Below, in pieces: positions 21,412-51,201 of a stretch of 64,000 nt of DNA. Source of the stretch: Acidobacteriota bacterium (GTDB lineage: Bacteria; Acidobacteriota; Thermoanaerobaculia; Gp7-AA8); assembly GCA_003223645.1 (NCBI GenBank), contig QHVT01000007.1, forward strand, positions 106,531-170,530, read 5' to 3'. Position numbers and translations under genes: made by a program. Position 1 is the first letter of the stretch, and each line of letters starts with the position of its first letter. The notes beneath the pieces were generated by a model. That model was not told the DNA's origin and searched no databases. It saw nothing but the letters and a program-made list of their open reading frames with translations.

Positions 21412-23334
<1,923 letters not shown>

Positions 23335-32382: not shown

Positions 32383-33183
32383 TTAAAACCACAAGCGAAT
32401 CGGTCTCACCCCTTCGCGCTCGAAGAACGGATCGAGTCTGCGCGCGAGCGCGGGCCAGTTGTGATGCGGGACTTGCGGGTAGAGGTGATGCTCGAGGTGG
32501 TAGAGGTGCTCGAGCGCGACGAGCGAGAGCACGCGGCCGCGGAAGAGTCTCGTCTGCTGCAACTCGGTGCCGCCGCGCGGATCGTGCGGAATGAAGGCGG
32601 TGACGAGCGGAAAGATCCAGCTGCCCGCGATCATCAGCGCGGCGTACGCGAACGGGAGCGGGGTGATCGGGATGATCGCGATGCAGATCCCGAGTCCGAT
32701 TACGACCGCCGACGCCTCGGCGATCATCCACGTGCGATCGCGTCCGTTCTTCTTCATCGCGAAGATCCAGAGCCGCGGCTGCAGCGTGATGCCTTCGAAC
32801 AGCGCGCGCACGAACGACATCCGCGACGCAGCGCCTTCGAGATCGTCCTCGGCGGGGAAGCGCGCGTGGTGATGAAGATGCACGGTGCGATAGGCGTGGC
32901 CGCTGCGGAACGAGAGCAGCTCAATCGCGCTGAGCAGCGACTCGTTCAGCCATCGCGGAATGCCGAGGTTGCGGTGAACGAGATCGTGCGAAATCGAGCC
33001 GTAGGTGAGGAAGCTGAGGAGCACCGGACACGCGAGCGCTGCGACGTACCACTGCCGCGACGCGAAGACGAAGAAGAGCGCGACGAGCGCGAACGGCGTG
33101 GCGAGCGTCAGCGCGAGGCGCCAGCGCGGAACGACCAGCAGGTCGCGTCCGATCTCATTCAGCGACGGCTGCATCGGCGTCAT
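32383..33183 (-). CDS. membrane fatty-acid desaturase family protein
   Basis: Three His boxes: HDLVHR, HLHHH, HLEHHLYP; multiple TM segments. Confidence 0.8.
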   Translation of the reverse strand: MTPMQPSLNEIGRDLLVVPRWRLALTLATPFALVALFFVFASRQWYVAALACPVLLSFLTYGSISHDLVHRNLGIPRWLNESLLSAIELLSFRSGHAYRTVHLHHHARFPAEDDLEGAASRMSFVRALFEGITLQPRLWIFAMKKNGRDRTWMIAEASAVVIGLGICIAIIPITPLPFAYAALMIAGSWIFPLVTAFIPHDPRGGTELQQTRLFRGRVLSLVALEHLYHLEHHLYPQVPHHNWPALARRLDPFFEREGVRPIRLWF

Positions 33184-33285
33184 TGTTAACCAAATCCCGT
33201 CTCATGGTGGTGTAGGACAGGCTTTCCAGCCTGTCCCCCCGGAGGCGGGCTGGAAAGCCCGCACTACGCCGGGGCTGTTAACCAA
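33184..33285. mobile_element. family C palindromic element bounded by exact 20-bp direct duplication TGTTAACCAAATCCCGTCTC (MITE-like insertion with target-site duplication)
   Basis: tgttaaccaaatcccgtctc at 33184-33203 and again at 33266-33285, bracketing the 60-bp palindrome in the desaturase / beta-lactamase-family divergent intergenic region. Confidence 0.6.
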
Positions 33286-33312
33286 ATCCCGTCTCGCGGG
33301 TTGAAACGACAT

Positions 33313-34980
33313 ATGAGACGGCTCCTCTTCCTTCTTTTTCTTGCGCGCGTCGTGTCCGCGGACGCGGCGTCATCGATCGACGAATACTTCACACGCCTGG
33401 CCGCGCACGGATTTTCCGGCGCGGTGCTGGTCGCGCGCGGCGAGGACGTATTGCTGCGCAAAGGCTACGGACTCGCCGACAAGAAGCGCGGCATCGTCAA
33501 TCGCAGCGACACGGCGTTCAACATCGCGTCGCTCGACAAGCAGTTCATCGCCGCCGGAATCCTGCGGCTCGAGGAGATGGGAAAGCTGCGCGTGAGCGAT
33601 CCGATCTCGCGCTTCTTCGACTTCATCCCCGACGACAAGAAGAACATCACGCTGCATCAGGTGCTGACGCACACGGCCGGCTTCAGCGACGAGTATTGGG
33701 ACGAGCATCCCGAGCTCACGCGCGCGGAGTTCATCCGCTGGGTCGTCACCGAGCGCAAGCTGCTTGCGCCGCCGGGAAAGGAGTGGTCGTACGCGAGCTT
33801 CGACTACTGGCTGCTCGAGGAAGTGATCGAGCGCGCGTCGGGAATGCCGTTCGAAGAGTTTCTGAATCGCGAGCTGTTCGCGCCGACGGGCATGCGCTTC
33901 ACCGGCTTCGCGATTCCGAAGTGGGACCGCGACAATGTTGCGCACACGAGTCTCTGGACGGTTCCGTCGTCGGCGCTGCCGGGCGAGATGAAGTTCGAGA
34001 ATCCGCTCGATCGTCCGGCCGCATGGCGCGTAATGCTGTCGACGCCGGAGGATTTGTATCGCTGGTATCTCGCGCTGCGCGCGGGACGCGTGCTCACGCC
34101 GGACTCGCGCAGGAGACTCTTCACGCCGGTGATGGAGAACTACGCGTACGGCTGGTACGTCGCGCCGACGATTCGCGGCACGAAGCTGATTCATCACGGC
34201 GGTGGCGGAAGCGGTGTCGGGACAGTCGTGACGTTCGACTGGTTCGTCGACGAAGACACGCTCGTCGTCATCACGAACAACTCGATCATGAGCGGCTTCG
34301 GCGCCGACTTCATCATCGCGGACGTCGAGGCGATGCTGTTCAGCGGCGCGGCGATGATGCCGCCGCCGTCGATCGCGCGCAAAGAGCCGGCGAGCGTCGG
34401 CGGCACGTATCGACTTCCGCGCGGCGGCACATTCGACGTCGTGCAAACGACAGGTCCGCTCGTCGCCGTGAGCCGCGACGCCGAAGCGATCTCCGCACTG
34501 CTCCTCGGCGGCACGGACGCCGGCAGTCTCTCGCAGGACACGCTCGCGCGAGACGTGCTCCTCGCGGCGAGCCGCGGCGAATTCGCGGCATTCGATGCCG
34601 TCAGCGCCGACGATCATCAATGGATCGCGTCCGTGTTCGAGCGCGCGAAAATGCATGGCGCGCTGCAGGACATCACGACGATGCACTATCGCTCCTTCAT
34701 CCGCGACGGCGTTCCCGAGCTGCAGTCGTTCGTGAAGCTGCGTTTCGAGAAAAGGGATTTGTATCTGCGCGTCATGCATCACGCATCGGGAAAAGTGCAG
34801 ATCGATCGTCTCAGTCCGCCCGAAGGAATCGAAGCGGCGCTCGCACCCTCGCCGCAAGGCGGCTACACGACCTGGGAGCCGCGCCTCGGCTCGTCGGTGC
34901 GCGTAGACTTCGCCGAGAAATCCGTCCGGCTGCAAGGGAGCGCCGGCACCGTGATCGCGTCCCGAGTCGCAAAGCCATGA
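33313..34980 (+). CDS. secreted serine hydrolase, beta-lactamase/PBP-like family, long C-terminal extension
   Basis: Signal peptide MRRLLFLLFLARVVSADAAS; S-x-x-K motif (SLDKQF); track ORF uses TTG at 33301. Confidence 0.8.
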   Translation: MRRLLFLLFLARVVSADAASSIDEYFTRLAAHGFSGAVLVARGEDVLLRKGYGLADKKRGIVNRSDTAFNIASLDKQFIAAGILRLEEMGKLRVSDPISRFFDFIPDDKKNITLHQVLTHTAGFSDEYWDEHPELTRAEFIRWVVTERKLLAPPGKEWSYASFDYWLLEEVIERASGMPFEEFLNRELFAPTGMRFTGFAIPKWDRDNVAHTSLWTVPSSALPGEMKFENPLDRPAAWRVMLSTPEDLYRWYLALRAGRVLTPDSRRRLFTPVMENYAYGWYVAPTIRGTKLIHHGGGGSGVGTVVTFDWFVDEDTLVVITNNSIMSGFGADFIIADVEAMLFSGAAMMPPPSIARKEPASVGGTYRLPRGGTFDVVQTTGPLVAVSRDAEAISALLLGGTDAGSLSQDTLARDVLLAASRGEFAAFDAVSADDHQWIASVFERAKMHGALQDITTMHYRSFIRDGVPELQSFVKLRFEKRDLYLRVMHHASGKVQIDRLSPPEGIEAALAPSPQGGYTTWEPRLGSSVRVDFAEKSVRLQGSAGTVIASRVAKP

Positions 34981-35390
34981 TTCCCGACTATCGAATCGAC
35001 AACCTGATCGCCGTCGCCACGTCGATCCTGTTCCTGGTCCTGACGGGCGGCGGACTGCTGTTCGTCATCCGCCGCCGGATGAAAGAACAGCACGAGCTGC
35101 GGCGGGCGCTCATCGAGAAGTTGTCGGCCGAGGAGTTGATCCGGCTGGCGGAAAGCGAGGGGGGAAGGGGATGGCTGCGCGACGTGCTCGTCGGCGTGCG
35201 CGATCGCCACGCCGCGGTCGAGCGCGCGCTGCAGGTGATCTTCGCGGGCGTCGCGTGCGGGATCGCGAGCGGCTATCTCCATCAGAAGCCGCTCGGCGCG
35301 GCGGGGATGATTCTCGTCGCGGCCGGACTCGGACAACTCGTGGCGACGCTGATCTTCAACCGCCGCGACAAGGCGAGCGATGAGAAGTGA
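34976..35390 (+). CDS. small hypothetical membrane protein
   Basis: MIPDYRIDNLIAVATSILFLVLTGGGLLFVI...; ATGA overlap with upstream gene and GTGA overlap with downstream sigma factor. Confidence 0.4.
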
Positions 35391-35842
35391 TCGGCGCCGG
35401 CGACTTCGAGCGCTTCTATCGCGACACGCTGCCGCGGCTCGAGAAGTTCGTCGCGCGACTCGCGGGCTCGCGTGCGGCGGCCGAGGAGATCGTCCAGGAG
35501 ACGTACTACCGGTTTCTGCGGTCGCGATTCGAAGGCGGGTCGGACGAAGAGCGGCGGCGGTATTTGTATCGGATCGCGGTGAACCTCGCGAAGAACCTCT
35601 GGTCGCGGCAGCGGAGCGAAGAAACGATCGAGCTCGTCGCGCATGCAGACGCGTCAAACTCGATCGACGTGAACGGCGTGCTCGCGCGCATGGCGCCGCG
35701 CGAGCGCGCGCTGCTGTGGCTCGCGTACGCGGAAGGGTGTTCGCATCGCGAGATCGCTGAGGTGATGGACGTGAGCGCGCTGAGCGTGCGCGTATTGCTC
35801 TCTCGCGCACGGAAGCGATTCGTGGAGTTGATGGATCGATGA
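35387..35842 (+). CDS. ECF-type sigma-70 family sigma factor
   Basis: Region 2 (YRFLRSRF..., RYLYRIAVNLAKNLWSRQR) and region 4 HTH (CSHREIAEVMDVSALSVRVLLSRARKRF). Confidence 0.8.
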   Translation: MIGAGDFERFYRDTLPRLEKFVARLAGSRAAAEEIVQETYYRFLRSRFEGGSDEERRRYLYRIAVNLAKNLWSRQRSEETIELVAHADASNSIDVNGVLARMAPRERALLWLAYAEGCSHREIAEVMDVSALSVRVLLSRARKRFVELMDR

Positions 35843-36138
35843 ATGACGATCAACTGAAAGCCGCATTCACCGCGGAGCTGCAACGCGACGTGCAACTGAC
35901 GCGCGCCAGCGCGGCCGATCTCTGGAATCGCGCGCGCCGCGACGAGATCGTCGAGCAATACGCGCGCGACGCCCGCTCGCGCCGCATCGCCGATCGCGTG
36001 TTCGGCGTTGTCGAATTGTTCGCAGCCGACGTCGCGGCCGCGGCGCTGATCCTGCCGGCGGGAGGACTCGTGATTGCCGTCATCGGCGCCGCGATCATCC
36101 ACATGGCGGGAACGCTGGCGTTGATGGTGCGCGCGTGA
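35839..36138 (+). CDS. putative anti-sigma factor / small membrane protein downstream of ECF sigma
   Basis: 99 aa, 4-nt overlap with sigma gene, C-terminal TM segment. Confidence 0.35.
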   Translation: MNDDQLKAAFTAELQRDVQLTRASAADLWNRARRDEIVEQYARDARSRRIADRVFGVVELFAADVAAAALILPAGGLVIAVIGAAIIHMAGTLALMVRA

Positions 36139-36165
36139 GATTCATCGCGTGGACATCAGCAGGGC

Positions 36166-36483
36166 TTGGACCGTGCGGCGGAACACTTCCTGCGGGATTG
36201 CTATCGGCGGAAGAAGCCGGCGCGTGGGAAAGACTTCGCGCAGTCGCTGGACCTGACGCCGGAGTACTTCAGCTGGTTGGCGGCGCAAGCTCTCGGCGAG
36301 TCGCTGCACGTGTTCCTGCGCAAGAAGCAGGTTGAGTACGCGGCGCGGCTGCTCCGAAGGACGCCGCTATCCGTCGAAGAGATCGCCGTGCGCAGCGGAT
36401 TCGGGACGCGATCGGCAATGCACCGCTGGTTCGTGAAGGTCCACGGGATCGGTCCAGCAGCATTTCGGGAGCGGAAGAAATGA
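36166..36483 (+). CDS. AraC-type HTH domain protein (only C-terminal DNA-binding domain; possibly truncated regulator)
   Basis: EEIAVRSGFGTRSAMHRWFVKVHGIGPAAFR second-HTH signature of AraC/XylS family; only 105 aa. Confidence 0.5.
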   Translation: MDRAAEHFLRDCYRRKKPARGKDFAQSLDLTPEYFSWLAAQALGESLHVFLRKKQVEYAARLLRRTPLSVEEIAVRSGFGTRSAMHRWFVKVHGIGPAAFRERKK

Positions 36484-36657
36484 GATCGGCCGCGATCCGC
36501 TGTTCGACGTGATGACGATGTTAGCGCGCTTCGCGGAATGGGATGAACTGGCCGGTGCTTGCGTCACGAGCGATTTTGAGTGTCGGCATCGCGCGATGTG
36601 ATCGCGAGAGCGGCACGATACAATCCGCTCGCGCGATCTCTTTCTGCGCGACGAGCG

Positions 36658-37851
36658 ATGAAGAACGAAGCGATGACATCCGATCACCGGACCGTTGGAG
36701 CTTCTGGCTCCATGCCGCCGACCATGGCGAAAGTCAACGGGTTGCCACCATGGGCTGGCAGTGCGTGGCCCACCGAGAGTACGTTTCATCAACTGGCGCC
36801 CTACATCGGCAAGACGAAATCCACCATGGCTGCGGCGCTCATCCGAGAGTACGCGAAGCCTGGGGACGTTGTGTGCGACCCGTTTTCCGGCTGCGGCACT
36901 TTCGCGCTCGAGGCGTGGATAGCTGGGTGCCATGTAGTAGCGAATGATCTAAGCCCCTACGCGCACCTTCTGACGCGCGCGAAGCTCTTCCCCTATGAAT
37001 CTTCGGATGATGCACTTACAGATCTCGCCGCCGTCGCGAAATCGGTGGCACGTCGCCGCGCTCGGCCTGACCTCCGAACAGTTCCGCGTTGGATTCGTGA
37101 CTTCTTTCATCCCGACACACTGAAAGAAATTCTTGTGTGGACCGATGTCTTGCTGACGCAGGAGCGGTGGTTTTTGCTTGCCTGCCTCATGGGTATCCTT
37201 CATCATCAGCGACCGGGGTTTCTTTCTTTCCCCAGTAGTCACACCGTTCCTTACCTGCGCGTGAAGAAATTCCCGCGGCAACAATTTCCCAACCTCTATG
37301 CGTATCGTTCTATCCTTGATCGCCTGGAAGCGAAAGTCACGCGAGCGTTCAGGCGAGAGCCGAAGCTGAAGTTTGCGCTTCAGCGGCACTGTTTTTCAAC
37401 GCCGGCCCAGAAGCTGAAGCTCGCACGAAGCGTTGATCTAATCATCACCAGTCCGCCTTACATGCGTCAACTCGACTACGGGAGAGACAATCGCCTGCGA
37501 CTGTGGTTTCTGGGCTGCAAGGATTGGCATTCTCTCGATGACGTAGTATCGCCCGATCAGGAATCTTTTCTTGCGCTAATGGACCGATGCTTCGCGCGCT
37601 GGCATAAGTCCCTAAAGCCTCGCGGCCACTGTGTACTCGTGATCGGCGATCAATGCAGTCGTGAAGACCGAAGCGATCTACCCGATGCCGTCACTCAAAT
37701 TGCTCTGAAAGAGCGTCGCTTTTCTCTCGTTTCTTCGTACGCGGACACGATCCCAAACGAGCGGCGCGTTCGACGAGGAATCACCGGCAGCACCTCAGAG
37801 ACCGTATTGGTGCTTCGCCGAGCTCCGGAACGCGGAACGCGGCGAGCATGA
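36658..37851 (+). CDS. SAM-dependent amino-methyltransferase, paralog of 27162..28628 (alternative GTG start 36580)
   Basis: VVCDPFSGCGTFALEA (motif I), LIITSPPYMRQLDY (motif IV). Confidence 0.6.
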   Translation: MKNEAMTSDHRTVGASGSMPPTMAKVNGLPPWAGSAWPTESTFHQLAPYIGKTKSTMAAALIREYAKPGDVVCDPFSGCGTFALEAWIAGCHVVANDLSPYAHLLTRAKLFPYESSDDALTDLAAVAKSVARRRARPDLRTVPRWIRDFFHPDTLKEILVWTDVLLTQERWFLLACLMGILHHQRPGFLSFPSSHTVPYLRVKKFPRQQFPNLYAYRSILDRLEAKVTRAFRREPKLKFALQRHCFSTPAQKLKLARSVDLIITSPPYMRQLDYGRDNRLRLWFLGCKDWHSLDDVVSPDQESFLALMDRCFARWHKSLKPRGHCVLVIGDQCSREDRSDLPDAVTQIALKERRFSLVSSYADTIPNERRVRRGITGSTSETVLVLRRAPERGTRRA

Positions 37852-38263
37852 GATCTGGAAAACGGCGTGAGAAGTATGCAAACGCGACGAGCATTTCCCA
37901 GTCGAATGGATCGTGCGGCACGGTCGATGATGATACGTGGTGTTTCGAGCAGTGTGAAGGAAGCCATGGGTAGTGGCCGCGCGGCGAGGCTGTAACGGGA
38001 CGATTGCGGCACCGCGCGCGGCGTGGGCCGACGGCCAGCCGGCGTGATTGCAGACAGCCGCTGATTGCTTTCCTTGGGATATTCAGTATTCTTGATCTGC
38101 GGTCGCATGACCAACTCGAGCGATCTCACCGCGGAATGCGAACCCATGCGCGATGCGAGTTTGCCAAGGCGCTGACCGGCGGCATGCGCTTCTCACCGCG
38201 ACTGGCCGTGGTTGTTGTTCCGGGGCACTCGCTGAATAAACTTTTGGGACGGACACCTAGCGC

Positions 38264-41023
38264 ATGAATCGGCGTAACGACGACCAGTGGTGTCGAAGCT
38301 TGGCGGGCAAGATCGTTGGTAAATACAAGCTCCTTGAGTTTGTCGGTGCGGGACGCATCGGTTACGTATATCGCAGCCAACTCACTGACTTGGCCGAGTC
38401 AATGCCCGGAGTGAATCGCGCGGTTAAACTCGTGTTCGACGAGCTCCGACCTGGATGGGAAGTCGAAGTCAAGAAAGTGATGAGCCTCGAACTGATCGAG
38501 GGTGTGGTCCACTTCCACGAGTTAGGCACAGCGAGGATCGATCACAGTGGTGTCACTCACCTGTGCCAGTATACGGTATGGGACTATATTGCGCCGGGCG
38601 AAAATCTACATCAGTACTTAGCCCGTGTAGAGAGGGTTCCGGCTAGCTTTCTCATTGCACTTGTCGAGTCTGTCCTGCGTGTGTTACATGCGTGCGAAGC
38701 GCATGGCGTTGTCCGCCACGGTGATCTTCATGCCGGCAATATCCTGATCGGCGATGAGAAGACGGCACGGCTTGACGATTCTCTGCAACCGCGTGCGCCC
38801 GTTTACGTCTCCGATTTCGGTTATGGTGCCACCGGGGGGACTAAAACGCCGAAGGATGACTATGATGGGCTCGCGAACATCATCAACACGATGATTTCGC
38901 ATGTCGATCATGCGACGGCTACTTCGACTCACCGTCAGATCTTGCGAGCAATGCAGCGTGATCTCGGGAAGCTGCTTAGAGAGCGCGCGGGAGCCGAGCG
39001 CCGTACACCGCTTGAGATCCTTCGAGTTTTAGCCGACATCAGGAAGAGCGCTCAGACAAGCGAGGCTCGCGCGTCGCTTTCGCCAATCAGTTCGACGCGG
39101 CCTACCGGCCCAGTCCCCATTGACGCGCCCTCGGTCGGTCAATTTCAGGTGAGCGAAATGATCGGCGATCGCTGGGAGTGGTGGCAACGACTGTTTGTCC
39201 CCACCGTTCCGGCACGGTCGAAAATCCTCGCGCTCGACATTCCAACCGTCGTTACTGGGCCGCGTGGTTGTGGCAAGACGATGCTCTTCCGACGTCTTAG
39301 CGAGCGGCTGGTGGTGGAATGTGGTGAAGTGCCAGGCCTTCCGATTCAAAGTCGTTTTGTGGCGTTGTATGTGAACGCGAACGACTTCGCGGATGCGTTC
39401 GCCCATTTCCCGGACGCCCCATCATCGGACGACGAACAGCGACTGATTTGTTACGCGAACCTATGCATATTGGCAGATCTCCTTGCTGTACAGTCGGCCC
39501 GCGCCGGCCGGCTCAACGATCCCGCTCCAGACAGTTTGCTCGCTCTAGTGCAACGGTGGCTCATTCCGGATACGTACAACACGCTACTAGTCGGCGAAGA
39601 CCGTTTGGAGCGATACCGCGCTGTACTTGAGCAAATTAAGTGGACCTTCGGCGGTGGTGGCGGAAAGAATTCGTTCCCTGGCTATGCGGAGCTTTCACAG
39701 CATCGATGGCTGACGCGTTTGGTGCAGCAGGCCCGTGGTGCATGCGAATGGATTGGAGATCGTTCGGTGCTCCTCTTTGTGGATGATTTCTCCACGCCGC
39801 GTGTGTCTATTTCAATGCAGCGCGTGCTGAACCGCCTACTATTGCAGCGTTCACCCGACTTCCTGACAAAGGTTGCGACCGAAGCGTGGACAACGTTTGT
39901 CCCAGAAGACTCAACCGGCAAGAATCTCCAAGACGGAGACGACTATCAGCTCGTCGATATGGGCGAGGAATCGCTGTTCCTACCTGACGCAGAACGTCTC
40001 GCTTTTCTGGAGGCAGTGTTCTCGCGGCGTTTGCAGGTCGACCGCCGTGTGCCTGAAGGTGGGGCGTCACTTTCGACCTTCCTTGGACGTAACGGTCTGT
40101 CGAAAGCGGAGTTCGCGCGACGCCTGCGCGTGTCAGTTCACGACCAGGCAGAGTCCGAGCAACCAGCGGTCAGCGGAGTTTCTCAGAGACGAGGCCGTTC
40201 ACGCGGACGAGTTCGGTATTTTGGCGAGGACGTGTTTTCGAACCTGTGGTCTGGCGATACGCGAACGATGATTCAATTGGTCACCGATGTTATCGATCAA
40301 GCGTCGCAGCTGAAGGCGACGCCTGCGACTGACCCAGTGTTACGGCTTCCTGTCGATCCGTCACTTCAAGACCGAGCATTTCGGAATCGGGGCGGCGAAT
40401 GGCTGAATTCGCATACGCGAAATGAACCGACAGATCCTGAGAAGATGAAGAAGGAGCTCGCTCGCGTTCAGGCGGTTCGTCCCGGTTACAAACTGTGCGG
40501 AGAATACGGCGATCATCTAAAAGCGATCGTCGAGGCGTTCGCCGCGGCAGCGACGCAGTTGCTTCTGGGCCCAATGTACAAGATCACCGAGGGCAACACG
40601 ACCCGTGAAGTGCCGCGTATGGCGTTTCGGGTGGAGATCGTCGATGAGTTCCGGATCGACGGGTTAGCGCTGGAGATCTATCGCGACCTTATCCGGTATG
40701 GTCTTTTCATGCGCGACAACCGTGGCAAGAGCGTGCGAGGCACCTTTGTCCCACGCCTGTACCTTCGCCGGTTACTTCTGCCCTACTGCACTCTTGCACT
40801 ATCGAAACGAGACAGCGTCCCCCTTACGTCTGATTCGTTCACACAGCTTCTGTTATCTCCCGATGGTTTTAAATCGTCGTTCGTCGGTCGACGAGCTACC
40901 GGCGACCAAATGACGATGCCCTTTGTTGAACGCTACGAGGAAGAGATCGATCCCGAGTACGATGACTTGGATGACAGCGATTCGGTCGACGACACAGGAT
41001 CGGGACCTGACGATGATGAGTGA
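38264..41023 (+). CDS. fusion protein: N-terminal eukaryotic-like kinase-fold domain + central P-loop NTPase (STAND/NLR-like) + C-terminal acidic-tailed region
   Basis: Gly-rich loop FVGAGRIGYVYRS, VKLV lysine, Brenner motif VVRHGDLHAGNILIG (HGDxxxxN, lacks the canonical STK Lys), VSDFGYG (DFG); Walker A TGPRGCGKTM, Walker B LLFVDDF; terminal DDLDDSDSVDDTGSGPDDDE. Confidence 0.6.
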   Translation: MNRRNDDQWCRSLAGKIVGKYKLLEFVGAGRIGYVYRSQLTDLAESMPGVNRAVKLVFDELRPGWEVEVKKVMSLELIEGVVHFHELGTARIDHSGVTHLCQYTVWDYIAPGENLHQYLARVERVPASFLIALVESVLRVLHACEAHGVVRHGDLHAGNILIGDEKTARLDDSLQPRAPVYVSDFGYGATGGTKTPKDDYDGLANIINTMISHVDHATATSTHRQILRAMQRDLGKLLRERAGAERRTPLEILRVLADIRKSAQTSEARASLSPISSTRPTGPVPIDAPSVGQFQVSEMIGDRWEWWQRLFVPTVPARSKILALDIPTVVTGPRGCGKTMLFRRLSERLVVECGEVPGLPIQSRFVALYVNANDFADAFAHFPDAPSSDDEQRLICYANLCILADLLAVQSARAGRLNDPAPDSLLALVQRWLIPDTYNTLLVGEDRLERYRAVLEQIKWTFGGGGGKNSFPGYAELSQHRWLTRLVQQARGACEWIGDRSVLLFVDDFSTPRVSISMQRVLNRLLLQRSPDFLTKVATEAWTTFVPEDSTGKNLQDGDDYQLVDMGEESLFLPDAERLAFLEAVFSRRLQVDRRVPEGGASLSTFLGRNGLSKAEFARRLRVSVHDQAESEQPAVSGVSQRRGRSRGRVRYFGEDVFSNLWSGDTRTMIQLVTDVIDQASQLKATPATDPVLRLPVDPSLQDRAFRNRGGEWLNSHTRNEPTDPEKMKKELARVQAVRPGYKLCGEYGDHLKAIVEAFAAAATQLLLGPMYKITEGNTTREVPRMAFRVEIVDEFRIDGLALEIYRDLIRYGLFMRDNRGKSVRGTFVPRLYLRRLLLPYCTLALSKRDSVPLTSDSFTQLLLSPDGFKSSFVGRRATGDQMTMPFVERYEEEIDPEYDDLDDSDSVDDTGSGPDDDE

Positions 41024-42152
41024 CACAATGCAGCCGCTTTCCGCGGAACATGCTGAGAGCCGAGGCATTGTCTTCGGTCGACTGCCAGTGATGTCGCGTT
41101 GCGACACCCTGACGCTTCACGGCCGCGACCTTATAATCCATGCTCCCGGTTTTGAGGATCGCACGATGGCGATCGCCGGGCTGATCACTGACTCGGCGGC
41201 AGGGCGCGGTATTCTGCTCGATTATCGGCCACTCAATCTCACAAACCGGCTCACGGACGTGCGCGCCGTACTCTCCGGTAAGGGAGTCAGTATCGATGAT
41301 ACCGATATTCTGATCTACGACCGATTCAGCCCGGGAGATTTCGAGAGGCGCTTGGCTGAACGGCTCGCGGTTTGCGATGCCGAGCGCGTGTTCGTTGATA
41401 TTTCGAGTATGTCGAAGTTGGCAATATTGCTTGTTCTGGATGTGTGTCGACGCCTCGGTTTACACATCGTCGTGCTCTATGCTGAGGCTGAACGATACCG
41501 CCCGACGAAAGAAGAGTTTGAGCAGGCTCGACTAGCGAATGAGATTCATCAACCAAGCCTGCAAGTCTTCACTGGTGTGCATGGTGTGGTGAGGGTTGAC
41601 TCTCTGGCCAGCGTGGCGATGCAGGGACAGCCTACGGCGGCATTGGTCTTCATGTCTTTCAACGATGTACTAACACAGGTTCTGCTGAACACCGTTTTCC
41701 CCGGTCGCCTCTTTTTGATTAACGGTCGACCGCCAGTGCATTCATGGCGAGAGGCTGCGACGGCGTGGATCCATGCTCAGGTTCGCTCGGAATGGGACGA
41801 AGACAACCCCCAGAGTTCGGAGTCCGATAGTTTGTTGCCGCTGCGAACCACATCGACCTTGGACTACCGTGAGTCCGTGCAACTACTCGTGGAGCTTTAT
41901 TGGAGCCTATCCGCGAATCACCGCATCTTACTGGCCCCTTCAGGAAGCAAGATGCAGGCTGTGGCTTGTCATGTCGTGAAATCTCTGCATCCCGACATAC
42001 ACATCGAATATCCGTCGCCAGAGGGTTTCGTGCCGGAGTACAGCACTGGTGTGGCGGCCGTCTGGTCGCTGGATCTGGGACGATGGCCCGATACGTTGGC
42101 GTCGATCGCGGAAGCTGAACGGCAAACATACCTAGAGATTCCCCCATGCTAG
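41012..42152 (+). CDS. hypothetical protein (block 2, gene 3), translationally coupled on both sides
   Basis: ~380 aa from MSDTMQPLSAEH; no motif recognised by eye. Confidence 0.45.
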
Positions 42153-43183
42153 GCAAGGGTTCATCACGTGGACGGACCCCCGGCACGAAGCGCGCGCGCG
42201 CGACGCGTGGTGAGCGTACAGGCCAACCTAACGGTGCGAAAGAATCGACCGACACTGACCGGGATTCTCCATCAGCTCTCACACGGCCGAACCAACCCGC
42301 AATAGATGTCATTTTAGGGCGGCCTTTTCGCGTGCTCGATGACGGTTTCGCTCGCGTAATTGATTACATGGGCGATGATGCCGCTATCGTTCAGGCGGCC
42401 CGAGTGTCATATGGTCGGGGTACGAAGCGCGTGCACGACGACCGGGGGTTGATCAGGTATCTAATGCGACACTGGCACACGACGCCGTTCGAGATGTGCG
42501 AACTCAAGCTTCACGTGCGAGTCCCGATGGACACCTGGCGGCAGTGGATCAGGCACCGGACGGCGAATGTGAATGAGTACTCGACACGGTATTCTGTTGC
42601 GATTGACGCGGCGCAACGCACAGCACCGGATGCTTGGCGACTGCAAGCACCGGGAAACCGCCAAGGAAGTGCGGGCCGCGTAGCGTCTGCCGTTGGTCAA
42701 CGCCTAACGGAGTCGGAGCGACGTGTACAGAAGCAATCGCGCAGCGTGTACGAGGAGCGGCTGGCGGCTGGCGTTGCACGTGAGCAGGCACGGAAGGATC
42801 TTCCGCTATCCACGTACACGGAAGCATACTGGAAAGTGGATTTGCATAACCTGTTGCATTTTCTCCGGCTCCGTATGGATCCCAATGCGCAGGAGGAAAT
42901 CCGTGCATACGCGAACGTGATCGCGGAGGAGATCGTCGCGAAATGGGTTCCACTCACATGGGAAGCGTTTCTAGACTATCGGCTCAACGCGTTGCAGTTG
43001 TCGAGCATCGCGGCGGCGATAGTCAATGCGCTGTCTGTTCCGGATCGAGAGCTTGCGTGCCGGATCGCGTCCGAACATGGGCTCCTTCAATCAGATAGTG
43101 AAGGGCACCTTCGGCCGAATCGAGAGAGAACTGAGCTTGAGGCGACACTGTTAAAGCTCGGCATTGACTTGCCATGGCGGTAA
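42146..43183 (+). CDS. thyX: flavin-dependent thymidylate synthase ThyX with ~55-aa Arg/Lys-rich N-terminal extension
   Basis: ThyX signature RHRTANVNEYSTRY (RHR-x7-S-x-RY); N-terminal MLGKGSSRGRTPGTKRARATRGERTGQ... tail; no alternative in-frame start before the catalytic core. Confidence 0.75.
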   Translation: MLGKGSSRGRTPGTKRARATRGERTGQPNGAKESTDTDRDSPSALTRPNQPAIDVILGRPFRVLDDGFARVIDYMGDDAAIVQAARVSYGRGTKRVHDDRGLIRYLMRHWHTTPFEMCELKLHVRVPMDTWRQWIRHRTANVNEYSTRYSVAIDAAQRTAPDAWRLQAPGNRQGSAGRVASAVGQRLTESERRVQKQSRSVYEERLAAGVAREQARKDLPLSTYTEAYWKVDLHNLLHFLRLRMDPNAQEEIRAYANVIAEEIVAKWVPLTWEAFLDYRLNALQLSSIAAAIVNALSVPDRELACRIASEHGLLQSDSEGHLRPNRERTELEATLLKLGIDLPWR

Positions 43184-43189
43184 ACCCGC

Positions 43190-43430
43190 GGTCGTCCACG
43201 ATGCCGGCTTGCTCACCGCGGCCGCGGAAGGTGCGATCGGCCTGCGTACGATCGGTGGCGCCGCCGCCGTGCGCGATCCACGTCCCGCCGCACGCGCGCA
43301 GGATCGGTTCGATGCCGGTCACGTGACCGCTGGCCGGCCGCTGCACGACGACGTTGCCTTCGGCATCCCATTCATGCGAGTACGGTTCGTGCTTCCGCAG
43401 ATCGACCGACAAGCGCAGGCGCCAGGACAT
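43190..43430 (-). pseudogene. 5' fragment (~80 codons) of a high-G+C host gene apparently truncated at the block 2 boundary
   Basis: MSWRLRLSVDLRKHEPYSHEWDAEGNVVVQRPASGHVTGIEPILRACGGTWIAHGGGATDRT... with strong GC3 bias for ~80 codons; track ORF (43023..43430) then continues without stop into lower-G+C DNA antisense to thyX. Confidence 0.3.
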
Positions 43431-43462
43431 CCGCGAGCGATTGTGTGGCTTAGACTCGCCGC

Positions 43463-44020
43463 ATGGGACTCTTGACCTTCAGCATCAACGTCACCCTGGA
43501 CGGCTGCGTCGATCACCAGGAGGGAATCGCCGACGACGAGACACACGCCTTCTTCACGCGCCTCATGGACGAGGGCGGGGCGATGCTGTGGGGCCGCGTC
43601 ACCTACGAGATGATGGAGAGCTACTGGCCGGCGGTCGCCCGCGGCGACGAGGAGGCGCCGCCGGCGATGCGCGAGTGGGCGGTCAAGCTGGAGGCCAAGC
43701 CGAAGTACGTGGTGTCATCGACGCGAAAGGACTTCCCGTGGACCAACAGCCACCACATCGCCGGCGACCTGCGCACGGGCGTGCAGAAGCTCAAGGACGC
43801 GACCCCGGCCGGCGTGCTCCTCGGTAGCGGCAAGCTCGCGACCGAGCTGGACCGGCTGGATCTGATCGACGAGTACAAGTTCCTCGTCCACCCCAGGATC
43901 GCTGGCCACGGCCCGACTCTGTACCAGAGCGGACTGCCCAGCACGCGACGGCTCGAGCTGGTCTCGGCGAAGCCGCTCCGCAGCGGCGCGGTCGCCATGC
44001 ACTACCGGCGCGCGCGCTGA
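43463..44020 (+). CDS. dihydrofolate reductase-family protein (RibD C-terminal domain type)
   Basis: 185 aa; MGLLTFSINVTLDGCVD...MLWGRVTYEMM...GVLLGSGKLATEL pattern of RibD_C/YwjB-like reductases. Confidence 0.65.
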   Translation: MGLLTFSINVTLDGCVDHQEGIADDETHAFFTRLMDEGGAMLWGRVTYEMMESYWPAVARGDEEAPPAMREWAVKLEAKPKYVVSSTRKDFPWTNSHHIAGDLRTGVQKLKDATPAGVLLGSGKLATELDRLDLIDEYKFLVHPRIAGHGPTLYQSGLPSTRRLELVSAKPLRSGAVAMHYRRAR

Positions 44021-44285
44021 CTCAGAGCAGCCCCATCGCGCCCAGCTCGCGGGCCAGCGCGTCGGTTGAAGCTGGATGGGTTCTGCGGAACGTTATCCGT
44101 CGAAGGACATCGCGGACGTTTCCTCTCGAAGACGAAGAAGCCGGTGAGACGTTTCGATCCGCTCGCGAACGCGATCGCGCAGGACGGCTAACTCCGCGCT
44201 TCGATCCCATTGATCACGCACAGCCCTTTTTCAAAACTCCAGCCGCAGCCCCAGCCGCGTTCGTAACCCGCGGCACAAGTAGTCT

Positions 44286-44315
44286 GGACCGGGCGCACTT
44301 CGGTGCGCCCGGTCC
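44286..44315 (+). other. perfect 13-bp stem with UUCG tetraloop
   Basis: ggaccgggcgcac-ttcg-gtgcgcccggtcc; 18 nt upstream of a 47-codon ORF with AGGAAA RBS. Confidence 0.4.
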
Positions 44316-44484
44316 CTTGAAAGGAAAACGCCCATGTCCAGGACGATGTTCACGAAAAAGCTGAAGGCGGAGCCGATCCTTCGCAAACTCGCCGAAACCG
44401 CTCAATGTCCTGCGACCCTCACTGAAACGAGACCGCCGCCTTGCCCAATCAGTTCGGCATCAACTCGGGTGCTATGATCGAGGC

Positions 44485-45039
44485 ATGGTCCGCGATCGCG
44501 CGCGCATTCCTCTTTCTTTCCTCGTCTTTCTAATCATTACTGCACCCGTTCAGGCGAAAGAAAAACCGCAAGCCACGATCCCCCTTTGTCCCGGCCAGAC
44601 GATGTCGCGGCTGGAGCTGACCGCGCCGGCACAGGCGACTTTCGGCCCTGACGAGAACGCAAGACTCAACCCCGGAAAAATGCGCGCGATGATCGTGGTC
44701 ATTCCCGCGGGCCGGTTTGCAAACTTCACGTTCTCGGCCGTGAAGCCGAAGGACGAAAACGCCGCGATTCTTTACGACTCGGAGTTTCATCAACTCGCCG
44801 TGCGCGGTACTGACCCTGCGAAAGGCTTCGAGCCGTTTCGCTATCCGGCAACGGCCCAGCCGACAGACACGATCGTCATCGTCTCGACGTGGGACAAGTG
44901 GCATAACAGGTGGAGCCAGTCCTTCGTGCGCATCGACTCACCGGCAGAAGGTGGCGGGATGTGGACGATTCGGGCAGAGGAAGCGGCGATCCTCTCCGGG
45001 GATTATCGGGACATGATCGTCAACATCACCTGCGAATAG
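44485..45039 (+). CDS. hypothetical secreted protein
   Basis: Signal peptide MVRDRARIPLSFLVFLIITAPVQA; no recognised domain. Confidence 0.5.
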   Translation: MVRDRARIPLSFLVFLIITAPVQAKEKPQATIPLCPGQTMSRLELTAPAQATFGPDENARLNPGKMRAMIVVIPAGRFANFTFSAVKPKDENAAILYDSEFHQLAVRGTDPAKGFEPFRYPATAQPTDTIVIVSTWDKWHNRWSQSFVRIDSPAEGGGMWTIRAEEAAILSGDYRDMIVNITCE

Positions 45040-45092: not shown

Positions 45093-46445
45093 TCAGGACA
45101 GTTTGGCTACAACCACCGTCACGTCATCGTCCTGCAGCTCGCTCCCGCGAAAACACTCGACGTCTTTGAGGATCGCGTCGCGCAGCGACTCCGCGCTGCC
45201 GTCGTGTTGTTGCACGAGCGCGGCGAGACGTTCGAGTCCGTACGTTTCACCCGCCTCGTTGCGCGTCTCGTAGACGCCGTCGCTGTGCAGCACGAAGACG
45301 TCGCCGGGGAGGAGGTCGATCGTGCGCTGCGGAATCGTGACTGGGAGGCGCACGCCGAGGGGCGGCGCGAAGAGATCGATCGATGCGACGGAGCCGTCGG
45401 CGCGGCGAAGGATGACGGGTGGATGTCCGGCGCTGGCGATGATCGCGCGACGTTTCGCGCGATCGAGCAGCACGACGGTGACGGTGACGAGCATGCGCCT
45501 GCGGCTCGTCTCCGCGACGAGATCGTGCAGGCGGCGCAACACCACGCCCGGATTGTCGAGCGCGTCGCGCAGCAGGGTGAATCCGCTGCGGATCGCGGAG
45601 AGTACGAGGCCGCTGGCCATTCCGTGTCCGGCGACGTCGCCGCAGACGAGGGCGACGCGATCGCCGTCGACGAAGTAGTCGTAGTAATCGCCGCCGACTT
45701 CCGTCGCCGGGATCGAGATCGCGGCGAGGTCGACCCAGTCGAGCGCCGGCGCGAACTCGGGGAGCATGCTGAGCTGCAGCTCGCGCGCGTAGCGCAGCTC
45801 GTCGCGCATGCGGATCTGCTCGCGCGCGCCGGTGCGGCGCTCGGTCCACTCCGATCGCAGCTGGCGGCGCAGACGCCACGCGCCCCACAGCTCGATCGCC
45901 AGCGCGATCGCGTTGATCACGCCGACGCCAACGTAGTAGCCGATGTCGTCGTCGCGCTTGAAGGGATTGCCGACGATCGACGGCATGAGCAGCGCGCCGC
46001 CCGCGATCACCGCGTGCAGCAGCACGTGCTCGGCGACGTGCATCCGGATCGCGACGACGATCCACGGAAACGCGAACGCCCAGCCCATCCAGTTCTGTCC
46101 CGTGCGCGCGTAGACGAGCAGCAGGACGTATTGCGTGATCGTGAACGAGACGACGGTCGCGGTGACGTGATTGCTCAGCCAGCGGCCCGCGAAGGAGGGA
46201 TGCGCGCGATACGAGTTGCGCACGACCCAGAACACGATCGCGATGAGCGCGAGATTCGCGGTGCCGAGGAGGACGTCGAAGATCGTGTTCGTGCGGGGAT
46301 GCGCGACGGTGTGAATGAACGCGACGATCGCGAAGATGATGAGGAAAATCTGGAGCCAGAAGCGGTTCCGTTGATCGAAGCGGCGGCGGACCACCATCTC
46401 GTCGGTGGTGCGCGCGATCTCGTCGAGGGTGTACGGCACGGTCAT
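45093..46445 (-). CDS. membrane-anchored PP2C-family (SpoIIE/RsbU-like) protein phosphatase
   Basis: N-terminal multi-TM region; EVGGDYYDYF, VCGDVAGHGMASGLV, LHSDGVYE, DDVTVVV PP2C metal-binding motifs. Confidence 0.8.
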   Translation of the reverse strand: MTVPYTLDEIARTTDEMVVRRRFDQRNRFWLQIFLIIFAIVAFIHTVAHPRTNTIFDVLLGTANLALIAIVFWVVRNSYRAHPSFAGRWLSNHVTATVVSFTITQYVLLLVYARTGQNWMGWAFAFPWIVVAIRMHVAEHVLLHAVIAGGALLMPSIVGNPFKRDDDIGYYVGVGVINAIALAIELWGAWRLRRQLRSEWTERRTGAREQIRMRDELRYARELQLSMLPEFAPALDWVDLAAISIPATEVGGDYYDYFVDGDRVALVCGDVAGHGMASGLVLSAIRSGFTLLRDALDNPGVVLRRLHDLVAETSRRRMLVTVTVVLLDRAKRRAIIASAGHPPVILRRADGSVASIDLFAPPLGVRLPVTIPQRTIDLLPGDVFVLHSDGVYETRNEAGETYGLERLAALVQQHDGSAESLRDAILKDVECFRGSELQDDDVTVVVAKLS

Positions 46446-48738: not shown

Positions 48739-48891
48739 AAAAACAATACTGGCGTCGCGGGGAAATGCCAGCTCAGCGTCGCTTTGACCTCCACCCGGGC
48801 AACGTACCTCGGTTCTGCCAAATCGATCAACGCAAACAACCGATTCTTGACGCGTCGAAAGTCTAGTAACGTATAGGAGTCAAAGGACGCG

Positions 48892-51201
48892 ATGGCCACC
48901 CGCAGATCGAAAGACCAGCTTCCCCTCACTCCACCACCGCCGCCCACCATCCCCGACGTCGAAACGCTGGCCGTCGGCGACTTCGCGCGCAAGGCGTACC
49001 TCGACTATTCGATGTACGTCATTCTCGATCGCGCGCTGCCGCACCTCGCGGACGGATTGAAACCGGTGCAGCGGCGCATCATCTACGCGATGTCCGAGCT
49101 CGGCCTCGGGTACACGTCGAAGCCGAAGAAATCCGCGCGCACGGTCGGCGACGTGATCGGCAAGTTTCATCCGCACGGCGACACGGCGTGCTACGACGCG
49201 ATGGTGTTGATGGCGCAGTCGTTCTCGATGCGCTATCCGTTGATCGAAGGACAGGGAAACTGGGGCTCGCCGGACGATCCGAAATCGTTCGCGGCGATGC
49301 GGTACACCGAGGCGAAGCTCGCGAAGTTCGCGCAATCGCTGCTCTCGGAGTTGGAGCAAGGGACGGTCGAGTGGGGACAGAACTTCGACGGCACGCTGAA
49401 AGAGCCGAAGCTGTTGCCGTCGCGACTGCCGCACGTGCTGCTCAACGGCGCGGCCGGCATCGCCGTCGGAATGGCGACCGACATTCCGTCGCACAACCTG
49501 CGCGAGGTCGTCAACGCGTGCATCGAGCTGCTCGACAATCCCGACGCGACGATCGCGCAGCTGACGAAACACATCAAGGGTCCCGACTTTCCGACCGCCG
49601 CCGAGATCATCACGCCGCTGGCGGAGATCCGCGAAATGTACAAGACCGGCCTCGGCTCGATTCGCCAGCGTGCGAAGTGGGACGAAGAAGACGGCAAGAT
49701 CGTGATCTCGGCGCTGCCCGCGGGCGTGTCGGGCGCGAAGGTACAGCAGCAGATCGCGGCGCAGCTGGCGGCGAAGAAGTTGCCGATGGTCGAGGATGTT
49801 CAGGACGAATCGGACCGCGAGGATCCGACGCGTCTCGTCATTTTTCCGCGCTCGAACCGCATCGATCTCAACGAGCTGATGACGCACCTCTTCGCGACGA
49901 CGGACCTGGAGAAGTCGTACCGCGTGAACATGAACATGATCGGCCTCGACGGCCGGCCGCGTCTGTACGCGCTGAAGGATCTGCTGCAGGAATGGCTCGA
50001 GTTCCGGATCGAGACGGTCCGGCGCCGCCTGCAGTATCGCTACGATCAGGTCAACGCGCGGCTGCATCTCCTCGAAGGGTTGATGGTCGCGTACCTCAAC
50101 ATCGACGAGGTGATCCGCATCATCCGCACGGCCGACGATCCGAAGGCCGAGCTGATGAGCCGGTTCAAGCTCACCGAGGCGCAGACCGAGTACATCCTCG
50201 AGCTGAGGCTGCGCTACCTCAACAAGCTGCAGGAGATGGAGATCCGCGGCGAGCAGAAGAAGCTGGAGGACGAGCGCGCGGAGCTCGAGAAAATCCTCGG
50301 GTCGAAAGCGCGTTTGCGCAAGCAGGTGCGCGACGAGCTGCTGCGCGACGTGGAAGAATTCGGCGACAAGCGAGTGTCGCCGATCGTCGAGCGCGAGGCG
50401 GCGAAGGCGATGGACGCGACGGCGCTCATTCCGTCCGAGTCGGTGACGGTGGTGTTGTCGGAGCGCGGATGGGTGCGCGCGGGGAAGGGTCACGACCTCG
50501 ATCCGACCGCGCTGCAATATCGATCGGGCGACGCGTTCCTGCACGCGGCGAAAGGGCGCAGCAACCAGCTCGCGGTCTTCATCGACTCGACGGGACGCAC
50601 GTATTCACTCCCCGCGCACGAATTGCCGTCGGCGAAGAGTCACGGCGAGCCGCTCACGTCGTCGCTCGCGCCTCCCGGCGGCGCGACGTTCATCGGCGTG
50701 ATGATGGGCGAGGCGGATGACTTGTGGCTGCTCACGACCGACGACGGCTACGGATTCGTCGCGCGCCTCGAAGACATGATGACGCGACTGAAGGCAGGCA
50801 AAGCCGTCGTGAACGTCGGCAAAGGGGCGAGCGTGCTGCGGCCGCAGCGCGTTCTCAATTACGAGACGGATTTCATCGCCGCGGCGTCGACGGAAGGGAA
50901 GCTGCTGTTGTTCGAAGCCGCGGAGCTGCCCGTGCTCGCGCGCGGCAAAGGCGTGCAGACGATCAAACTGCACCGCACGCCGATCGCGCCGGAGAAAGTC
51001 GTCGGCACCGCGGTCGTCCCGGCCGGCGGCACACTCGTCGTCCACGCCGGCAAGCGCTACACGAACCTCAAGGGCGGCGATGACCTCGACAGCTACATCG
51101 GCAAACGCGCGCAGCGCGGACTGAAACTGCCGCGCGGGTTCCAGAACGTGAATTTGATTCGCACGTGGAGCGAGCGGGATCGGGCGGAGCCGGTGAATTG
51201 A
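48892..51201 (+). CDS. parC: DNA topoisomerase IV subunit A
   Basis: 769 aa; [44 protein letters not shown], catalytic-Tyr region [10 protein letters not shown]. Confidence 0.9.

Follow-up and report, generated by a model that had tools for sequence, protein, structure and literature searches.

Pseudogene remnants and scars are known from genomic-island junctions in integration hotspots, in connection with genome decay and deletion bias. Illegitimate or microhomology-assisted short-patch replacement, for example by homology-facilitated illegitimate recombination, is known in transformable bacteria. The locus described here, from an uncultured soil Acidobacteriota MAG, can be compared with both. 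Within the window (the whole 64,000-nt stretch of DNA that was analysed), positions 43187-43430 are most probably a non-functional junction in a hotspot, left by serial acquisitions followed by deletions and not by one clean insertion. Like the known scars, the junction has a truncated gene at the edge of DNA of foreign composition, in a locus that differs in all relatives examined. Unlike a textbook split target, it lacks the other half of the gene, a target duplication, and an intact end of the element, and two independent acquisitions have cut the remnant back, one on either side. As in short-patch replacement, a foreign segment of less than one kilobase has taken the place of resident DNA, and imperfect matches of 7-8 nt are found at its two junctions (GGT.GATC on the left side of the patch, T.GA.GCT on its right side). 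In contrast to homology-facilitated illegitimate recombination, no homologous anchor was identified, and we infer the mechanism. The parts of the junction and their immediate neighbours are as follows.

36600-43186, plus strand: mobile, defence-like island with a methyltransferase (MTase), a Ser/Thr-kinase + ORC/CDC6-like AAA protein (919 aa), a CARF-like protein (409 aa), and ThyX
42146-43183, plus strand: thyX, intact, the last gene of the island (PF02511, E = 8.7e-51)
43023..43430, minus strand: chimeric ORF of 135 aa with an ATG start, made of four pieces and not a gene
43023-43186: tail of this ORF, antisense to thyX
43187-43232: orphan filler of 46 nt, containing the palindrome CCGCGGCCGCGG
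43233-43395, minus strand: otsA remnant, 55 codons (163 bp), approximately residues 10-65 of an enzyme of ~480-500 aa
43402-43430, minus strand: patch-derived start of the ORF, ATG (43428-43430) and about nine codons (MSWRLRLSV..)
43402-44064, plus strand: RibD_C patch of 0.67 kb, consisting of the gene (43463-44020), a 61-nt 5' flank, and a 44-nt 3' flank
44065-44207, plus strand: fragment of an ATP-dependent DNA ligase gene, about 47 codons, starting at motif I (KLDG), with its 5' part missing

The original prediction started from a minus-strand reading frame of high-G+C codon usage that opens at 43430, and this frame is indeed present. Read in the phase of the ORF, 43187-43430 has GC1/GC2/GC3 values of 0.72/0.54/0.84, matching the flanking high-G+C genes (0.66/0.46/0.93 for RibD_C and 0.69/0.43/0.89 for SpoIIE); GC3 is approximately 0.6 in thyX and the other island genes. 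As had also been noticed, the frame runs without a stop across the last 160 nt of thyX in antisense (the thyX stop codon lies at 43181-43183). Its chimeric nature was borne out as well, although it is composed of four parts and not of two. Because no in-frame stop occurs before 43023, the four pieces form a single open frame of 135 codons. DNA of 67% G+C contains many overlapping ORFs of this size, which makes ORF length alone uninformative. Since long open frames are common at this G+C content, homology was needed as the test of coding ancestry.

Neither the 135-aa ORF nor its 80-aa segment matched a Pfam family at E ≤ 1. In the form found in the window, the N-terminus of the ORF reads MSWRLRLSVDLRKHEPY.., and the only database proteins with the same architecture are identical in sequence and come from 17 contigs of one population. 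The 10 of these independently assembled soil-metagenome contigs that were fetched represent 10 samples and three assembly sources, and the recurrence of the identical junction on all 17 excludes misassembly. An Rfam scan and promoter and terminator scans of 42900-44600 returned nothing relevant. The ORF has no plausible function. An open frame with the same sequence on 17 contigs, in which the invariant residues of a protein family are kept (see below), might suggest that a functional small protein has newly arisen or that the frame acts on thyX as an antisense regulator, but this is extremely improbable. The frame unites four unrelated origins, has no family match and no homologue of like architecture besides itself, lacks any promoter-like site, and covers about 12% of a two-domain GT-B enzyme without its catalytic domain; as the contigs represent a single population, their identity is no evidence of selection. 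There is a small chance that a peptide may be expressed from the remnant ORF.

The coding ancestry of the central part of the ORF can be traced to otsA, the gene for the GT20 trehalose-6-phosphate synthase. A search with the 82-aa translation returned the identical 135-aa ORF and 23 N-terminal GT20 homologues (E = 1e-22 to 4e-6). Several of the homologues bear the annotation trehalose-6-phosphate synthase or Pfam PF00982, and none is a complete gene of ~80 aa. The homologues have the motif ..NREPY.H....RPASGLVTAL.P..RACGGTWIAHG.G.ADR in common. The closest relative, P0002, is 70% identical to the remnant at the amino acid level and is encoded on L011. In blastn, the remnant is 82% identical to L011 over 43389-43233 and 79% identical to L012 from 43395. 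On L011, the same N-terminus is followed by one in-frame stop and then by a 400-aa PF00982 ORF, from which a length of approximately 480-500 aa can be derived for the full OtsA. A profile built from the family alignment matches the solved OtsA structure 5JIJ of Mycolicibacterium thermoresistibile at residues 10-59 (E = 3.6e-6). Residues 12-66 of the ORF align to the N-terminal strand-loop region of the family, in which the pattern ..NR.P....RPASGLVTAL.P..RA.GG.WI.. is found. Compared to the family, the window has only ~55 of 480-500 codons, neither a catalytic C-terminal domain nor a native start, and the remnant falls under any Pfam threshold. Beyond 43233, the homologues go on with ..GRV.VPP..P.YTLRR.., and the window has ..TFRGRGEQAGIVDDRGF. 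Judged by these alignments, the segment is what remains of a real protein-coding gene and no small gene in its own right. It represents an internal part of otsA, without its own start and without the >400 C-terminal codons, and falls short of the complete two-domain GT-B enzyme (~450-500 aa, with the catalytic C-terminal domain). Thus, of the approximately 80 good codons originally attributed to one gene, 55 (43233-43395) do come from otsA, but the first 9-11 and the last ~15 are of other origin. The missing 3' remainder had been proposed to lie at one of the other block boundaries, around 36490, 28640, or 23890, or elsewhere in the genome; a tblastn search with the 400 C-terminal residues of OtsA gave no match at these boundaries or in any other part of the 64-kb window (best E = 1.4).

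The remnant has retained all 16 invariant columns of the alignment (16/16), with changes in the nearly invariant N-R, which is K-H here, and in SGL, which is SGH. As these 16 residues are kept and the frame is open, the decay of otsA is mild. The dN/dS ratio is ~0.20 for the remnant versus L011 and L012 and 0.04 for L011 versus L012 (55 codons, with saturated dS), which weakly points to a recent loss of constraint. Damaged otsA genes are also found in the two soil relatives, at L012:338-631, where otsA ends after ~73 codons and unrelated genes come next, and at L011:132-1682, where codon 82 is an in-frame TGA. This damage reflects either repeated otsA decay in the clade or assembly errors. We also considered a family of small N-terminal OtsA-like proteins. 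This candidate was rejected because L011 shows the in-frame stop and then the remaining gene; most of the short matches are frameshifted ORFs or partial ORFs at contig ends.

The start of the ORF has a different source. The gene at 43463-44020 on the plus strand belongs to the RibD_C/YyaP family ("dihydrofolate reductase family", DHFR-like). A search with its protein yielded 7,937 protein clusters at E ≤ 1e-20, and the gene matches 573 stretches in a collection with one genome per species. Of these 573, the best 80 (L013-L092) show 92-100% aa and 90.6-99% nt identity and are distributed over at least nine phyla (Chloroflexota, Acidobacteriota, Pseudomonadota, Actinomycetota, Myxococcota, Gemmatimonadota, Nitrospirota, Verrucomicrobiota, and Armatimonadota), with complete Sorangium and Cystobacter genomes among them. 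The maximal DNA common to the window and other loci is 43402-44064, or up to 44072 with mismatches, and this patch is 95-99% identical at the nucleotide level in Chloroflexota, Actinomycetota, Myxococcota, and others. The stretch with the ORF start is identical or nearly identical upstream of RibD_C in several phyla (L014, L017, L020, L025, L029, L045, L053, L064, and L065). In L014, L020, L025, L029, and L053, the patch stretch is kept through 43402-43407. In L017, L064, L065, and L045, the ORF-start stretch runs on into the unrelated sequence ..SVETILRLTPAVLG.., which in L017 is adjoined by the tail of an ISL3 transposase. The view of the segment as a 5' gene fragment therefore did not hold, as the ATG and about nine codons belong to the RibD_C patch and otsA homology starts only at ~43395. 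The residues MSWRLRLSV agree with the N-terminus of the closest OtsA (L011, MSNRERVTV) at 5/9 aa and 17/27 nt, in almost the same register. This likeness over nine codons could be due to chance or to microhomology that guided recombination, and there is a small possibility that an otsA 5' end was the source of the flank common to the other phyla.

Among the 80 loci, the flank shared together with the RibD_C gene never exceeds ~100-170 nt. Mutual flanks longer than those kept in the window are found on both sides in several loci, for example between L017 and L065 and between L020 and L065, and the truncated genes at the two patch edges, otsA' and lig', both lack their 5' parts and point away from the patch. 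Because other loci share longer flanks and both patch edges meet truncated genes, the window is a recipient of the patch. The ligase fragment on the right is 78% nt identical to L093:780-922. In L093, the ligase ORF reads ..GWLYELKLDGFRGTLYV..GRFLSKTKK.. and carries a Pfam DNA_ligase_A_M annotation; the upstream ..GWLYE.. is absent from the window. A ligase gene running on into the patch, which would have made the window the source context, was rejected, as ligase homology begins exactly at 44065. The homologous, frameshifted ligase of L093 (L093:706-1289) lies 1.6 kb to the left of an island copy, and the fragment in the window lies to the right of the island. The island and the ligase may be parts of one larger element integrating in different registers.

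On the other side of the otsA remnant lies the island, for which four other copies were compared.

L093:2519-11087, island copy
L094:2539-11087, island copy
L128:2654-8945, island copy
L129:995-9053, island copy

The island is 87-94% nt identical to the copies in L093 and L094 and ~70-75% identical to those in L128 and L129, all with unrelated flanks. The ThyX homologues are 94% and 89% identical, and the whole module recurs with both of them; the distant copies (ThyX 67-71% identical), from a Thermoanaerobaculia MAG and another metagenome, have the same core. The full module encodes a methyltransferase, a GmrSD_N/NsnA-like protein, a 211-aa protein, the Pkinase + ORC/CDC6-like AAA protein, a CARF-like protein of ~380 aa, and ThyX. 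The 919-aa kinase-AAA protein is conserved at 82-97% aa among the module copies. PADLOC, together with Pfam annotation, assigned parts of the island to the types MTase_II, CARF_STK_AAA, and CARF-like. ThyX passes the TIGR02170 equivalog model (175.5 bits versus a cutoff of 87.9), and its gene overlaps the preceding gene in the module. It is puzzling that a defence-like module should regularly end in a thymidylate synthase gene. Neither the island nor the patch has relatives on viral contigs.

Homology of the window to L093 and L094 covers 36600-37827 and 37828-43186. At 37827/37828, the window lacks 1.9 kb with the GmrSD_N/NsnA gene and the gene of the 211-aa protein. At the left end, ~100 nt common to L093 and L094 are missing. 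At the right end, homology stops 3 nt past the thyX stop codon, and at least 46 nt are missing, including the thyX terminator hairpin. This comparison with two other island copies places the end of homology at 43186/43187, within the originally proposed boundary of 43185-43195. Since the island copy is decayed, the present junction would be a deletion product and not an insertion endpoint. A search for direct or inverted repeats flanking 36.6-43.2 kb found only short chance matches. The 46-nt filler between island and remnant gave no blastn-short match in the fetched loci, apart from contigs of the same population. Local alignment of the filler with the rest of otsA in L011 and L012 gave scores inside the shuffle range, and its alignment with the island termini of L093 and L094 revealed no convincing similarity.

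The original prediction, i.e. a host gene split by one insertion of the thyX block, with a native ATG at 43430 and its 3' half located at a different block boundary or in some other part of the genome, is very unlikely in light of these data. It was correct in that a real otsA remnant of host-like composition is found beside a foreign mobile block; the first nine residues are also loosely similar to the closest OtsA. There was, however, no single clean insertion. RibD_C flanks from other phyla contain the ATG and nine codons at 95-99% nt identity, the 3' half is not in the window, the island termini are missing with no target duplication, and the relatives have no otsA at the locus (see below). 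Furthermore, the gene fragment does not directly abut the block, as otsA homology stops at 43233 and 46 unmatched nucleotides precede the block edge.

The variability of the region extends well beyond the junction. With SpoIIE (45093-46445) as an anchor, 33 related loci were fetched, and six of them come from informative relatives whose SpoIIE is 55-75% identical at the amino acid level. The genes following SpoIIE in these relatives are listed below.

L097: orthologue of window 33190-34977
L099 and L101: orthologue of window 32386-33201
L118: parE (window 21439-23331)
L095 and L098: unrelated genes

The otsA gene, RibD_C, a 184-aa gene, and the island are all absent at this locus in the six relatives examined. 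The empty-site comparison proposed at the outset thus did not yield an uninterrupted gene, as relatives with conserved flanks carry no otsA here. At the distance of these relatives (SpoIIE 55-75%), an otsA gene at the site in a species-level ancestor remains compatible with this result. Judged by gene content, 23.3-45.1 kb of the window is a variable hotspot between parE and SpoIIE-parC, with at least 35.0-45.1 kb being extra compared to the closest informative relative. In L118, the gene order is parC, S24 peptidase, SpoIIE, parE, and the topoisomerase IV genes lie close together in relatives. In the window, ~22 kb of variable DNA, including both low-G+C blocks, separate SpoIIE from parE (21439-23331), and parC is at 48877-51198. 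A set of DUF6249, ECF sigma, 99-aa, and 105-aa AraC-type HTH_18 genes (34977-36483) lies between a conserved beta-lactamase-family gene and the island. It is missing at the corresponding position in L097; in L099, an HTH_18 homologue (58% aa) is present, but on the opposite side of SpoIIE.

Such variability also bears on the source of the otsA piece. It may not be host DNA at all, having arrived either as junk cargo of a larger element together with the island and the ligase, or as one of several short fragments (46, 163, 670, and 143 nt) captured in one end-joining repair. No relative has otsA at the locus, the whole 23-45 kb region is variable, and the junction is a string of very short unrelated fragments. 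In addition, the ligase homologue in L093 lies beside the same island on the opposite side, as if circularly permuted. Nevertheless, we regard this origin as unlikely. None of the four other island copies or the 80 RibD_C loci has otsA nearby, which makes it improbable that the gene came with either of them, and its closest relatives come from soil Acidobacteriota/Thermoanaerobaculia, like the host itself. Moreover, the patch and the island do not seem to be of the same age, with 98-99% identity to other copies for the former and at best 94% for the latter.

The favoured explanation therefore remains a series of acquisitions and deletions, the order and mechanism of which, serial illegitimate and possibly microhomology-guided recombination, we infer. 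As the sequence shows, an otsA gene was formerly present on the minus strand at this site, either as a long-standing host gene or as an earlier acquisition, and only 163 bp of it remain. The 0.67-kb RibD_C patch has taken the place of the 5' end of otsA (start codon, ~10 codons, and promoter), and its other edge cuts the ATP-dependent ligase gene at motif I. By chance, the patch brings an in-frame ATG. The 3' side of otsA (>400 codons) has been lost, with the remnant being joined to the island via the 46 nt of orphan DNA. Later deletions may have removed non-functional DNA up to the edges of the selected genes, thyX and RibD_C.

The RibD_C ORF is also found elsewhere as an integron cassette, with a GTTAGGC core site, a 96-nt leader, the ORF, and an attC site of ~69 nt. 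These cassettes are located in arrays with an IntI-like gene in MAGs of Proteobacteria, Acidobacteriota, Gemmatimonadota, and Nitrospirota. Cassette features (attC and the GTTRRRY core) are present in the loci of context family B (L018, L036, L037, L040, L041, and others), with RibD_C cassette arrays in L037 and L041 and an IntI-like ORF in L018, L037, and L044. In contrast, the copy in the window has neither attC nor core site, and its flanks are those of the non-integron context family. Its similarity to the cassette form stops 1 nt before the ATG and 7 nt after the stop codon. When the flanking ORFs of the 80 loci were clustered, the only recurrent transposase or integrase neighbour was the IntI-like ORF of three cassette-type loci. 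On plasmids, the patch was detected only in five megaplasmids or chromids, all predicted to be non-mobilizable. A literature search for the RibD_C/YyaP gene as a cassette or as a case of horizontal gene transfer found nothing relevant. In some Chloroflexia loci (L015, L027, L050, L070, and L074), a homologue of window 44023-44064, a sequence placed 3' of the gene in the window and in many other loci, is located directly upstream of the gene, at ~36-78 nt, and downstream similarity stops at the stop codon. This layout resembles a circular permutation and suggests a circular or tandem intermediate. Tentatively, and at somewhat less than even probability, the RibD_C unit could be among the most promiscuous genes of soil bacteria, spreading as a cassette in some genomes and, in others, without attC through variable junctions of the microhomology type.

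For annotation, these results mean that the 135-aa "hypothetical protein" on 17 public contigs is a four-part chimera that would be better labelled as an otsA pseudogene remnant. The case also shows that a compositional boundary combined with an open frame can be misleading about the position of a gene start. The locus itself is a clear example of a chromosomal hotspot that gathers and erodes acquired DNA between the topoisomerase IV genes. The island at its centre combines an MTase, a kinase/ORC-like ATPase, a CARF-like protein, and a bona fide thyX, a combination not accounted for by known defence systems. Finally, a DHFR-like unit of less than one kilobase spreads almost unchanged between bacterial phyla, partly outside integrons. 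If the tentative reading of the RibD_C unit is true, the unit would spread by a second route not described so far and would be under strong selection at present, perhaps for resistance to antifolates or other xenobiotics.
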